Source: Candidatus Yanofskybacteria bacterium
Lineage (GTDB): Bacteria > Patescibacteriota > Minisyncoccia > 2-02-FULL-40-12 > GWA2-44-9
Direction: 5' to 3'
Assembly: GCA_020852375.1 (NCBI GenBank)
Contig: JADZAY010000006.1
Span: 1 to 62,087, forward strand
Length of the DNA stretch: 62,087 bases
Below the pieces are notes generated by a model, which saw only the letters and a program-made list of their open reading frames with translations, was not told the DNA's origin and made no database searches. Positions 58,573 to 61,831 of the stretch are shown here, one piece after another. Position 1 is the first letter of the stretch; the number at the start of each line of letters is the position of its first letter. The position numbers were made by a program, and so were the translations under genes.

Positions 58573-59864
58573 CAGGTCGTATGGTTATATCCGTTCCCTA
58601 GCACGATAAAGCCGTCAACGATATGCTCCTCGATCAGCTCCTGCATGCGCTCCCGACCCATATATTCCACGAAGATCTTGTTCCACAGCGCCTCCTGCTG
58701 GTGGTAGAGATATTCCGCGCGAGGTCCGTCGCCATGTACGAGCGACATCAGAAGATCGATAAGGTCAAAACTCAGCAACTGCTGCTGGCCGCTTACAGGA
58801 TCGACGAATTCTTCCCCGATGAAATCGAGGCCCGTCCACCACCCGAGATCCAGCCCGCCGTGATCGCGCCCGAGAATGCGAGACAAACGGCTCAGGTCGT
58901 CCTCAGCCCGCCACCAATGGTCGGCCTCCGGATTCACATGCGGCTCGCCCAGACGCGGGTCGTGGATATCCTTCTTCGCAAGGTATTGCTGCACGACGCG
59001 CCACGCCACTCGCCCATCGTTCGGCGCTGGCGCACTCGACACATCCCCCCGAAGAAGACTCTTGAAGATCGTCCCGAAATCCGGATGCCCGAGGTAGCGC
59101 CGGAACAAACTCGCGTAGAAGGGAACCTCGTGCAGATAGTGCAGCATGAGGGTGAACAAGCGCAACGTCGCACCCTTCCCCTCAATACTGGCTGGGATCA
59201 CAAAAATGATGCCCAGCTCCTTCAGGTGGGAAACGTTGTGATACTTCCTCCGCAGAAATTTTTCGGCGACCGAAAGCCATTTCGTATCAAGCACCAAGTG
59301 ATCAACCTCGCGTTCCTCGAAGTCGTCGGCCGTCAGGCCGGAATATGCCTTCTCGAAAAACTCGTGCATCCATTCATCGGTCTGCGTGAACCGTAATGAC
59401 ACCATGACCGACGCGAAACCCTCCCGGTCCACTAGGTCGCGAACGGTCGCATATCCAAAGTGCTCGAGCAGATTGGCGGGCGGATACTGCTCCAACAGCT
59501 CCACCATCCGCTCGCGCTTGATGAACAATCCTGGCGGCGGGACGAACACTTTCGCCACCGTCGTACAGAGCTTCGCGCACGCTTCTTCTGGTTTCGTGAG
59601 ATCGGGGCGATCGAGTAGATCGTACAAATGACCATCGAGGTGCCCCAGCCGCTCCACCAGCGCCGCATACACCGCGGCAAGACCGTCCCGCCGTGTCACC
59701 CCAAGACCGGCAAGCGTACGGTCCACAGTGATGTCGATCTGCCGAGCAATATCTTCGAACACACCCTCCTGCCCGGTGATCGCGTTCATCTTCTGCTCAA
59801 TGGCAAAAAGCGCCTTCGGATCGGCGCGCATGAGACGCGCAAGCTTGTTGAACGGGTCGCGCAT
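58572..59864 (-). CDS. Conserved hypothetical protein coupled to fba
   Basis: Its stop overlaps the fba start. His/Glu-rich motifs YHNVSHLKE, HYLHE, HVNPEADH, YHQQE. Confidence 0.85.
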   Translation of the reverse strand: MRDPFNKLARLMRADPKALFAIEQKMNAITGQEGVFEDIARQIDITVDRTLAGLGVTRRDGLAAVYAALVERLGHLDGHLYDLLDRPDLTKPEEACAKLCTTVAKVFVPPPGLFIKRERMVELLEQYPPANLLEHFGYATVRDLVDREGFASVMVSLRFTQTDEWMHEFFEKAYSGLTADDFEEREVDHLVLDTKWLSVAEKFLRRKYHNVSHLKELGIIFVIPASIEGKGATLRLFTLMLHYLHEVPFYASLFRRYLGHPDFGTIFKSLLRGDVSSAPAPNDGRVAWRVVQQYLAKKDIHDPRLGEPHVNPEADHWWRAEDDLSRLSRILGRDHGGLDLGWWTGLDFIGEEFVDPVSGQQQLLSFDLIDLLMSLVHGDGPRAEYLYHQQEALWNKIFVEYMGRERMQELIEEHIVDGFIVLGNGYNHTT

Positions 59865-59931
59865 GGTTTCCTTCAGTATACCCCGCCTGGAGCCGCGGCG
59901 GATGTGCATAAAATGGCCATTTTTGGGGGTA

Positions 59932-59960
59932 TTGACAAAATGGTTCAGAAATGCTATCAT
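59932..59960 (+). promoter_or_regulatory. Strong sigma70 promoter P1
   Basis: TTGACA-17-TATCAT with an extended TG. Confidence 0.8.
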
Positions 59961-59966
59961 ACTTCT

Positions 59967-60402
59967 GCCACGCTCGGGCCAGGCTCCTGGTGAGCCCGTT
60001 GGCTAGAGGACGGCGTGGGTAGCAGTGTTTCGATCCGAGGTATAAAAGTGCCTCGTAAGAAGAACCTGATACGAACGCGCGGTGCATTCCGTTAGTACCT
60101 ACCAGCGCTCTCCCACACATGGGAGCAGCCCGCCATCGATCGTCGACTGGAATAGCTGAGGATGGGAGTTTTAAGCAAACGTCCTCCTGTCACTCGGCCG
60201 CGACCTCCTCGTCGAAACGGAGATGGAACACCGGGCACAATCATGACTCCTTTCTAAAGGAGCCCGAAAGGGACGAAGACGTCATGCCGGTTTCAACCGC
60301 AGACGCGTAAGCGGCACCGGAGAACAGCGATCCCGAGTAGAACGACGCCACAAACGAGGCGGGAATACTATTCCCAAACCATGTGGCGTCTTTCATTTTT
60401 TG
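59967..60402 (+). ncRNA. Candidate large structured ncRNA 1
   Basis: Bounded by P1 and a GACGCCACA/TGTGGCGTC stem plus T-rich tail. Many hairpins and no credible ORF. Confidence 0.55.
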
Positions 60403-60418
60403 AACATACTCGAGGCAC

Positions 60419-60447
60419 TTGACGCAAAATAAGCATCGTGGTATGAT
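60419..60447 (+). promoter_or_regulatory. Strong sigma70 promoter P2
   Basis: TTGACG-17-TATGAT with an extended TG. Confidence 0.8.
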
Positions 60448-60453
60448 GCCTCT

Positions 60454-60829
60454 GTGGAGGTTCGGTCCGGCGCTGCTAGACCTGGCGCGTCCTTCCGGGG
60501 GATGTCTTAGCCCATCCTACCGACAAAAGGACCGTGCGTCGCCGGCGCGACGCATCCGCCGTCGGCAGCACCCGGGGCCGAACCTCCACACCCGCTCTTT
60601 TTCTATAACCTTCACCTCTCCGGCCGAAACCGGCGCAGAGGGCACAGCGCCTCTGCACTCCCGCGAGGACTGGAGCCGCGGTTGCCGACCGCGATCACTG
60701 AAGCGTTCCTCTCGGGGCCTGCTCGTACGGAGATCCGTACGGGGCATGTTCGCCTCCTGCCCGCCCGATCCTGGGCGGGGTGCCGTGAGACCGTTGCGAA
60801 AAGACAGGATATCGCAACGGTCTTTTTTT
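60454..60829 (+). ncRNA. Candidate large structured ncRNA 2
   Basis: 15-bp closing stem starts at the predicted +1. A 12-bp terminator plus T7 lies at 60788-60829. Confidence 0.6.
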
Positions 60830-60838
60830 GTGCCGCAT

Positions 60839-61831
60839 TCACCGCGCACCCACGCTGGTACGCACCACAGGGACCAACGGCCACGAGCCAATATCCCCGA
60901 CTCGGAGAATGCCCGCTTTCGCCCCGTACTGCATGACGACCGAGGTGGCGTTCGCGGTGCCGAACTGGATCGCCTTTTCGATGCTTCCGGAACGAATGAA
61001 CTCAGCGAGAAAACCGGCATGGAACGCGTCCCCCGCACCGGTGCGCTCGATCGTAGATCCCTCCGGGGTTCCGGCAGTATACCGCATGCGCCCATCGGAA
61101 ACAGCAACACCGCGCGGCCCGTTCGTCATACTGCAGATCCCTCCGATCGCATCATCAAGCGCAGCAAAGATAGCGTCGGGATCATCGAACGACTTTCCGG
61201 TGAGCTGAGCCGCTTCTTCCTGGTTCATCCCAACGATATCAAATGATTTCCAGAGCGGCGCAAGCACTGCAAGACCATGTGCCAGCTCTCCTGGCCCTGG
61301 GTTGGTCGCTACATGTGCTCCGGTCCGCTGTGCGAACGCCGCGATACGCTCAAGCATCTCGATACTTCCGCCGAGCGAGTTCACATACACCCACTTCGCA
61401 GAAAGCCGGTCCCACGGGATGTGCTCCGGATGCCAGTGAAGCCCCTCGCCCTTGTACGACAGGATCGTGCGTTCACCCCCGTCGCCAACCAGGATCGACG
61501 AGTACGCGGTAATATCGTCATCGCCCGCCATCATGTATTTCCCGTCGACCCGCTCGCGCCGAAGCTCATCGAGTATCGCGGCGCCGTTCGGGTCTTTTCC
61601 GATCACACCGATGCACGCAGCACGATACCCCTGACGGGCAAACGTGACCGCCGCATTCGTGCCACCGCCCCCTGATGCGAACACGATCTTCTTGACCGGC
61701 ACCTTCGAGCCAAACGGGACGCACAATCCTTTTCGCGTAGGAGATTGGTCGTCGTCGAGCACGCGGAACGCATCCGCGCTGAAAAAGACATCTTGGGTCG
61801 CCGACCCGATAGCGATAACGTCGTAGTTCAT
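60839..61831 (-). CDS. PfkB-family carbohydrate kinase
   Basis: IGSATQD, SGGGGTNAA, ERTGAGDAF. Confidence 0.93.
   Translation of the reverse strand: MNYDVIAIGSATQDVFFSADAFRVLDDDQSPTRKGLCVPFGSKVPVKKIVFASGGGGTNAAVTFARQGYRAACIGVIGKDPNGAAILDELRRERVDGKYMMAGDDDITAYSSILVGDGGERTILSYKGEGLHWHPEHIPWDRLSAKWVYVNSLGGSIEMLERIAAFAQRTGAHVATNPGPGELAHGLAVLAPLWKSFDIVGMNQEEAAQLTGKSFDDPDAIFAALDDAIGGICSMTNGPRGVAVSDGRMRYTAGTPEGSTIERTGAGDAFHAGFLAEFIRSGSIEKAIQFGTANATSVVMQYGAKAGILRVGDIGSWPLVPVVRTSVGAR

Follow-up and report, generated by a model that had tools for sequence, protein, structure and literature searches.

A probable clade-restricted structured RNA family at the pfkB locus of Candidatus Yanofskybacteria

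Described RNAs and the Yanofskybacteria locus

Bacteria of the Candidate Phyla Radiation (CPR) have genomes of 0.6-1 Mb with few protein regulators, and their RNA-based regulation is, to our knowledge, almost unexplored. The present work concerns a candidate non-coding RNA (ncRNA) gene of ~375 nt, termed RNA2, at 60454-60829 on the plus strand of a 62,087-nt stretch of DNA from a Candidatus Yanofskybacteria bacterium (GenBank assembly GCA_020852375.1, contig JADZAY010000006.1, positions 1 to 62,087). The genome, labelled G000, measures 0.74 Mb in 24 contigs, and this whole stretch, the window, forms its contig C6. Among described RNAs, its nearest likenesses are RsaE/RoxS, the other Rsa RNAs and RNAIII of Staphylococcus aureus, which share with it a promoter of their own, a Rho-independent terminator and an (in RNA2, apparent) independence of Hfq (PMC2790875); RNAIII is moreover, like RNA2, a large RNA of many hairpins. 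In the Hfq-independent small RNAs (sRNAs) of Gram-positive bacteria an unpaired UCCC motif binds the Shine-Dalgarno (SD) sequence, and the 5' hairpin has been proposed to be stabilising; the SD-complementary motifs of these C-rich-motif RNAs of Firmicutes are unpaired, often stand in loops and sometimes occur in several copies (PMC2790875). The own promoter and intrinsic terminator expected of such C-rich, anti-SD sRNAs were found at the locus and are conserved in its orthologues. There is, however, no similarity in sequence or to covariance models (the Rfam models compared include RsaE and RNAIII), and the build differs. Relatives of RNA2 copy up to 10 nt of the 16S rRNA tail, whereas the Firmicutes RNAs carry UCCC, and the 5' element of RNA2 is a long-range helix around a hypervariable module of ~45-120 nt, in contrast to the simple hairpin of the Firmicutes RNAs.

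The raiA motif RNA, OLE, ROOL, GOLLD and HEARO are, like RNA2, bounded by a promoter and a terminator, heavily paired, several hundred nucleotides long, supported by covariation and without an assigned function. RNA2 matches none of their Rfam models, is narrower in distribution (one genus-level clade) and evolves far faster, with only its closing helix (P1), a linker and short motifs kept clade-wide. Like RNA2, the 6S and Ms1 RNAs have a domain whose 5' and 3' portions meet in a closing helix, and are poorly conserved in sequence; RNA2 was traced by synteny, as Ms1 had been (PMC9130861). RNA2 differs from them in having no central bubble or rod, but a variable three-way junction followed by a 240-nt 3' domain; it also gives no match to the 6S model RF00013 and is dispensable in close relatives.

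RNA2 very probably represents an undescribed, fast-diverging, clade-restricted family of structured ncRNAs in one clade of Candidatus Yanofskybacteria. An earlier note, made from the letters of the window alone, had seen in the locus its best candidate for an undescribed system; an undescribed, clade-restricted RNA family is indeed indicated, but "system" is too strong a word, and RNA2-type units also stand alone. The family offers a clean, covariation-supported, CPR-specific structured RNA of unusual build, in which a long-range helix at the 5' end encloses a hypervariable module and other segments resemble the 16S tail. It is a good entry to CPR riboregulation, though it is narrow in distribution and derives from uncultured organisms only. 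If the anti-SD role discussed below is real, translation control of the RsaE/RNAIII kind would exist in the CPR too, by independent origin or deep ancestry, and would provide a handle on translation tuning in these organisms; if it is not, RNA2 stays a well-defined orphan RNA for Rfam and for work on structure and function.

Evidence for a plus-strand RNA gene

That 60454-60829 is a real RNA gene of the plus strand is judged highly probable from the sequence comparisons. Its transcription would start from a sigma-70-type promoter with an extended -10 element on the plus strand at 60419-60447 (TTGACG, a 17-nt spacer and TGgTATGAT), which agrees with the consensus at 10 of 12 positions and has the TG before the -10 box; the 1.7 kb scanned contained two promoter-like sites, against 0.6 +/- 0.9 in shuffled sequence. 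The start site is placed at ~60453-60454, and the closing helix begins at 60454, 6 nt past the -10 box, in keeping with the earlier proposal that this promoter sets +1 on the first base of the stem. The promoter is conserved in both copies of the locus in the closest relative (G003, see below) and in every RNA2-type orthologue. Its form, TTGAC-N15-TGnTAnnnT, is common to 41 promoters of G000, many of which precede protein genes with an SD sequence. Among these 41 strong promoters, that of RNA2 is the sole one whose +1 region falls within a long-range helix of at least 12 bp (16 bp, the next longest being 11). As a separate observation, about 12 of the 41 canonical promoters have no SD-led open reading frame (ORF) within 120 nt, examples being C1:18805(+), C5:82478(+), C5:106062(-), C8:73696(+), C9:48515(+), C19:82086(-) and C20:7307(-), and some of these may drive further unannotated RNA genes.

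When the 15 family members are folded independently, the 5' end is paired in P1 in every one of them. Over the first 12 gapless positions of the helix (180 cells), 148 cells are Watson-Crick pairs, 21 are G·U, 1 is A·C and 10 are other combinations. Swapping the 3' strands between sequences gave 122.7 +/- 7.3 paired cells against the 169 observed, and none of 5000 swaps reached as high. Each sequence was assigned its 3' partner positions on the basis of its individual minimum free energy (MFE) fold, which inflates the percentage paired and to that extent tells against the RNA-gene reading; the slide and shuffle controls offset this bias in part, and the covariation counts and the slide are less affected by it. 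Because MAFFT misaligned the full family across the variable interior, P1 was also tested on an interior-trimmed alignment of 13 sequences. In this alignment 96.2% of the cells are paired, 10 of the 12 pairs are compensatory and none of 500 shuffles was as good, while pairing falls to 31-52% when the partner is slid by 1-3 columns. The interior varies in size and fold, which points to a constraint on P1 itself, that is, on the sequestering of the 5' end. This agrees with the stabilisation proposed for the 5' hairpins of Hfq-independent sRNAs in Gram-positive bacteria (PMC2790875).

An alignment over the full length was feasible for the close trio only, namely G000 and the two G003 copies. Here 93.4% of the cells are paired, compared to 37-47% after sliding, and 16 pairs are compensatory, a result that none of 500 shuffles equalled (7.0 +/- 1.9); the best-supported helices of the 3' domain are H6, H8 and the terminator. 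The covariation that the earlier note had proposed to look for is thus present, in that the helices of both P1 and the close trio keep their pairing through compensatory changes. Folding of 60454-60829 yields an MFE of -190.1 kcal/mol; shuffled sequences average -155.4 +/- 5.9, and none of 100 was as good (z = -5.94). As the minus strand likewise gives a good fold (z = -4.4), the choice of strand cannot be made on energy by itself. A G·U pair on the plus strand is, however, a C·A mismatch on the minus strand; the 21:1 asymmetry in P1, the promoter and the U-run jointly place the RNA on the plus strand. The U-run exists on this strand only, and the T7 terminator is accordingly usable in the one direction, as had been supposed.

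Whether the locus yields one 375-nt RNA or a ~140-nt RNA plus a second domain had been left undecided. In none of the orthologues do the 5' and 3' domains have a promoter between them. The U-rich tract starts 6-25 nt after P1 in all members and not at the foot of the helix; a terminator directly after P1, from which a 140-nt RNA would result, is unlikely, since a U-tract at this offset does not form a canonical terminator. With neither an internal promoter nor a canonical terminator after the 5' domain, a single primary transcript of ~375 nt is the most economical reading and the one that the sequence favours. Such a transcript may still be processed, for instance by RNase III at the 26-bp stack of P1 and P2.

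The closest public relative at the locus is the metagenome-assembled genome "Candidatus Yanofskybacteria bacterium SJ168" (G003; JADLBM01), in which the locus is syntenic on two contigs with 72-80% nucleotide identity. Orthologues occupy the same site, between pfkB and a gene for an unknown 430-aa protein (unk), in about 13-15 Candidatus Yanofskybacteria genomes or metagenome contigs. An RNA2-type unit is composed of the promoter, a P1 of 12-17 bp with a G-rich 5' strand (GaUGGGGUCGG), a variable interior, "CACCCG" with a U/C-rich linker, the 3' domain and the terminator. Such units are present in G000, both copies of G003, G002 (= L037), G005 (= L038), G007, G009 (= L083), L040, L073, L074, L076, L081 and L082, with variants in L075 and L043. 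Across the family the 5' domain measures 73-147 nt, its interior ~45-120 nt with folds that differ among members, and the P1 partner of the first transcribed bases lies 70-145 nt downstream. In the distant L081, whose unk is 66% identical, H5, the outer helix H6 and H8 can be recognised by eye, as can the CCUCCU segment and the loop of the terminator, although the stems have changed.

To place the family among its neighbours, pfkB and unk were located in the genomes of the genus, in 36 metagenome contigs and in 13 further assemblies; homologues of unk number about 1,800. The gap between the two genes is 20-50 nt in many lineages (G004, G001, L041, L042, L044, L048, L051, L053 and others) and 100-1340 nt in other lineages; in the clade of G000 it always opens with a conserved promoter opposite to the genes and holds 1-3 promoter/terminator units. 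In a maximum-likelihood tree of the unk protein the RNA-bearing loci form one clade (support 100/99), with the exception of the sister-clade pair L043/L046. Outside this clade, L043/L046 aside, pfkB and unk are adjacent or split by AT-rich spacers. G004, in which the genes are adjacent, is nested inside the RNA-bearing clade, and this indicates a secondary loss of the RNA. The tree, together with the adjacent genes of the outgroups and of the nested G004, thus argues that the RNA2 family is clade-specific, vertically inherited and dispensable.

The earlier note had further described a tandem ncRNA locus, made up of RNA2 and an upstream unit, RNA1 (59962-60392), which lies opposite to and interrupts the run of pfkB, the unknown gene and fba. 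Synteny in the relatives bears this out, the whole tandem arrangement being kept in both copies of G003. The RNA1 partner is, however, not universal, as G009, L040, L074 and L081 have the RNA2-type unit without an RNA1-type unit.

The two copies in G003, on contigs C8 (L005) and C16 (L004), are diverged copies of the whole unk-RNA1-RNA2-pfkB locus, one of the contigs being 3,983 bp long. Compared with G000 their RNA is 72-77% identical and each unk protein 88% identical, and they most likely reflect two strains or species binned together, not a duplication. The pfkB-unk intergenic site is itself a hot spot (59865-60838 in the window; the same gap in L029-L036, L037-L068 and L073-L085) and contains unrelated-looking units in other members, such as three or more in L046, three in L075 and one 110-nt unit in G008/L039. 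The six-frame matches to unk were flagged with one in-frame TGA in G006, G008, G009 and G010, a flag that may be artefactual if the alignment reaches into sequence ahead of the real start.

Searches by model recovered the family less fully. Across 62 family genomes, a covariance model of three 5' domains (R1) matched nothing but itself and G003, and it gave weak matches of 14-20 bits in syntenic gaps. A mini-model of P1 and the linker with the interior removed (R2) recovers only the members with short interiors; in 105 genomes of the order it produced three matches, all without a promoter and in coding or terminator sequence, which were rejected as false positives. An exact 18-mer scan of the genome contigs returned only G003 and two chance matches.

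Candidate mechanism and competing explanations

The 16S rRNA of G000 ends in GGAUCACCUCCUUUCU, and the 3' domain, read on the RNA strand, contains matches to this tail, namely UCACCUCCUU in both copies of G003, CCUCCUUUCU in L081, ACCUCCUUUC in G005, ACCUCCUUU in G009, CCUCCUUU in L040 and ACCUCCUU in L082. Of the 15 members, 7 reach an identity of 8-10 nt on this strand, against at most 6 nt on the opposite one. The matches in G000 itself are limited to CCUCCU (60753-60758; predicted 0.6 unpaired) and a partial copy, UCACCUC (60612-60618), and it is at the position of the G000 CCUCCU that the segments of G003 and L081 stand. The motif is predicted to be mostly unpaired in 11 of 14 members, with values of 0.75-0.99 in most relatives compared to a whole-RNA mean of 0.32-0.45. 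In G005, G009, L040, L074, L076 and L082 it lies, as judged by eye, in the loop of a 5-bp hairpin, the stem of which differs by lineage. No Hfq or CsrA was found by tblastn with approximate query sequences.

By analogy with the Firmicutes RNAs, RNA2 could be an Hfq-independent regulatory RNA that pairs with SD regions. The 5'-terminal P1 helix and the terminator would protect both ends of the RNA, which would act in trans and without Hfq by means of exposed C/U-rich segments copying the 3' tail of the 16S rRNA (CCUCCU in G000, 8-10 nt in the scored RNA2-type relatives). These segments would pair with the SD regions of mRNAs and lower their translation or stability, as in RsaE/RoxS and RNAIII. 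A number of observations weigh against this mechanism. A search of the organism's own genome for trans targets by complementarity gave only 12-15-mers, which is chance level. The motif of G000 is short and by itself not significant, shuffles reaching 7 nt in 15% of trials, and its predicted unpaired probability is only 0.6; the B-type members (G002, L073 and G007) have a weak motif or none. By a crude count, SD sequences appear to be in only moderate use (252, compared to 177 for the control motif). The members are related, so that the recurring motif is not fully independent evidence, and the mechanism leaves the hypervariable 5' module and "CACCCG" unaccounted for. In view of the missing target, the near-lack of the motif in the B-type members, the moderate SD use and its inferential nature, the mechanism is kept at about one in three, while the explanation as a whole, an independently transcribed RNA gene plus this mechanism, is given a probability of about 0.4.

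The most probable of the alternatives, though unlikely, is that RNA2 is a protein- or ribosome-binding scaffold, sponge or decoy, not an mRNA-pairing regulator. It could, for example, mimic the 16S 3' tail for a tail-recognising factor, or titrate a protein via its linker and terminator loop. The RNA is large and heavily structured, as such a function would suggest, and its single-stranded conservation is highest in the CACCCG/U-rich linker and in the 12-nt loop of the terminator (GAAAAGNCAGGAUAUC), the latter being retained in L081 despite the changed stem; the failure to find a specific mRNA target in the own-genome complementarity search fits equally. Protein scaffolds, however, do not usually have a hypervariable interior, G004 and G001 do without the RNA, and no candidate partner is available, Hfq and CsrA having not been found. 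In a bolder form, which is quite unlikely, RNA2 would be a dedicated 16S-tail decoy, abundant and end-protected, that competes with the 30S subunit for SD sequences or titrates a factor that reads the tail. The RNA would then set genome-wide translation initiation in an ultra-small bacterium without Hfq, CsrA and apparently the signal recognition particle (SRP), and the hypervariable module inside P1 would be a lineage-specific add-on.

Equally improbable is a role in cis, whereby the unit, strongly transcribed and convergent with pfkB, insulates or tunes the pfkB/unknown/fba operon through transcriptional interference or antisense pairing with read-through transcripts, and its sequence matters little. 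The family always lies at one site and on the opposite strand, with its terminator 10 nt from the pfkB stop codon, a fixed position that vertical inheritance alone nevertheless explains. The fast turnover of the sequence, and the adjacent and presumably co-transcribed pfkB and unk where the RNA is absent, are in line with a cis role; on the other hand, covariation keeps specific helices, the G·U bias points to a folded plus-strand RNA, and interference needs no conserved accessible motifs.

It is very unlikely that the locus holds no RNA gene at all, but a decaying minus-strand gene for a small protein, a DNA inverted repeat or a remnant of a mobile element. A strong SD and an ATG do stand on the minus strand in G000, G003 and G005, this strand folds well and the site is prone to insertions. 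The minus-strand ORF behind the complementary SD AGGAGGCGAACAUG (60747), however, is 76, 122, 212, 47 or 48 aa long or missing across the relatives, and arginine-rich; a small minus-strand protein gene was rejected, as the ORF is conserved in neither length nor sequence and is absent in G002, L074, L075 and L076. No conserved open frame exists on either strand at the RNA2 locus. The 21 G·U pairs of P1 (against the 1 A·C) would be mismatches on the minus strand, the locus is single-copy within the G000 genome and has no terminal repeats common to other loci, and the tree fits vertical descent.

The known RNA families were also considered. Rfam 15 identified tRNAs only in the window; in 59850-60900 at E <=10 the best matches scored 16-21 bits against cut-offs of 38-80, and the 15 orthologous loci had no match at E <=0.05. 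An Rfam family such as 6S, SRP or Y RNA, an identity for which the earlier note had allowed, was thus not recognised at the locus. RNase P RNA sits elsewhere, at C16:26575-27003 (92 bits, RF00010), and ARAGORN calls the transfer-messenger RNA (tmRNA) at 80354-80706 of another contig; both are single-copy, so that the locus would need to be the genome's only match. 6S RNA was rejected, there being no RF00013 match in the region or in the G000 genome, no central bubble, and no such locus in G004 and G001, whose flanking genes are separated by 30 nt. SRP RNA was rejected with no match to RF00169 or RF01854 in G000 and none to RF00169 in 12 genomes of the genus; a regular-expression search for the GGAAGCA-type motif of SRP domain IV returned nothing at the locus, and Y RNA/YrlA had no Rfam model match there. 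A search for SRP54-type GTPases, positive in all 14 control genomes, found none in G000 and weak P-loop-like matches of 17-20 bits in six other members of the genus (also by tblastn). Without a genuine Ffh or FtsY in the genus an SRP RNA would have no partner, and the genus is possibly an SRP-less bacterial lineage. A highly diverged housekeeping RNA (6S, SRP, Y or RNase P RNA, or tmRNA) missed by the Rfam models, for which it may be said that neither SRP nor 6S RNA is detectable in the G000 genome, has next to no chance in the light of these results and of a 5' domain that ranges from 73 to 147 nt with differing folds.

Parts of the RNA and its surroundings

In the MFE fold, and by comparison within the family, P1 joins 60454-60470, which begins at the presumed first transcribed base, to 60572-60589 on the plus strand, as all parts described here. 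Its 15-bp core helix (60454-68/60575-89) is continued by the extensions GCUGCU/GGCAGC, GAC/GUC and GGCG/CGCC to a junction with GUCCUU/AAGGAC, holding GGAUG/CAUCC, and UGCGUCGC/GCGACGCA. The stem, extensions and junction helices that had been read from the letters alone are all reproduced in place by this fold, and the pyrimidine-rich linker, the further hairpins and the 12-bp terminator are present in it as well. The interior of the 5' domain (60472-60569) is a three-way junction of the P2 extension (60472-81/60561-69) and two hairpins: hairpin A (60489-60532), in which all three sequences of the close trio share GGGAUGUCUUAGCCCAUCCUACCG, and hairpin B (60535-60554), deleted in the C8 copy of G003. 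The linker ACCCGCUCUUUUUCUAUAACCUUCA (60590-60614) is likewise unchanged across the close trio and is predicted to be single-stranded, with an unpaired probability of 0.95 in G000. The motif CAYCACCCG is found in 10 of 15 family members, and "CACCCG" with a U/C-rich tract follows P1 in most.

A long-range helix that would close the 3' domain is weak (79.5% paired). The first hairpin of this domain, H5 (GGCGCAGAGG/CCUCUGCACU, 60632-60659), is 96% paired with 1 compensatory pair, and has as its counterpart in L081, read by eye, GCGCAGG/CCUGCGC. Helix H6 (60660-69/60707-16) is 96.7% paired, with 4 of its 10 pairs compensatory in three sequences alone, and encloses the nearly invariant hairpin H7 (60670-81/60689-700), which is 92.6% paired. 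Hairpin H8 (GCCUGCUCGUACGG/CCGUACGGGGCAUGU, 60717-60749; 97.4% paired, 4 compensatory pairs) is followed by the mostly unpaired segment UUCGCCUCCUGCCC (60749-60762), which holds the anti-SD-like CCUCCU, and by a hairpin specific to G000, CCCGCCC-GAUCCU-GGGCGGG (60760-60779), which is an 11-nt insertion relative to G003.

The intrinsic terminator (60788-60829) consists of a 12-bp stem (60788-99/60812-23), a 12-nt loop and T7. In the close trio the stem is 100% paired with 2 compensatory pairs. The automatic terminator scan was limited to loops of at most 8 nt and therefore misses it. The loop motif GAAAAGaCAGGAUAUC (60798-60813) is kept in G000, both copies of G003 and the distant L081, though the stem differs, and this suggests that the loop has a function beyond termination. 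The same loop contains an A(N)GGA-like motif; no CsrA was found encoded.

The genes at the locus are ordered fba, unk, RNA1, RNA2, pfkB, and RNA2 is transcribed, as predicted, opposite to pfkB, unk and fba; in the relatives the operon around the gap reads rpiB-rpe-pfkB-[gap]-unk-fba. The two strongly promoted ncRNAs occupy ~1 kb of G000, or roughly 0.13% of the genome. In a duplexfold comparison of RNA1 with RNA2, 9, 7 and 8 of 30 shuffles were equally good, duplexfold being a program that ignores intramolecular folding. RNA1 has a hairpin of its own, GACUCCUUUCU-A-AAGGAGCC at 60245-60264, whose stems are identical in G000 and both G003 copies, the loop base alone varying. Within this hairpin the 16S-tail-like CUCCUUUCU is paired with an SD-like AAGGAG, so that anti-SD-like sequence is present in RNA1 as well as in RNA2. 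On the minus strand, a -10-like GGTATAMW stands 11-13 nt upstream of the unk start codon (59866-59885 in the window; also in L034 and L028). It is kept with the RNA insertion as well as where pfkB abuts unk, and this points to a separate promoter for unk-fba, from which a very short leader would be transcribed.

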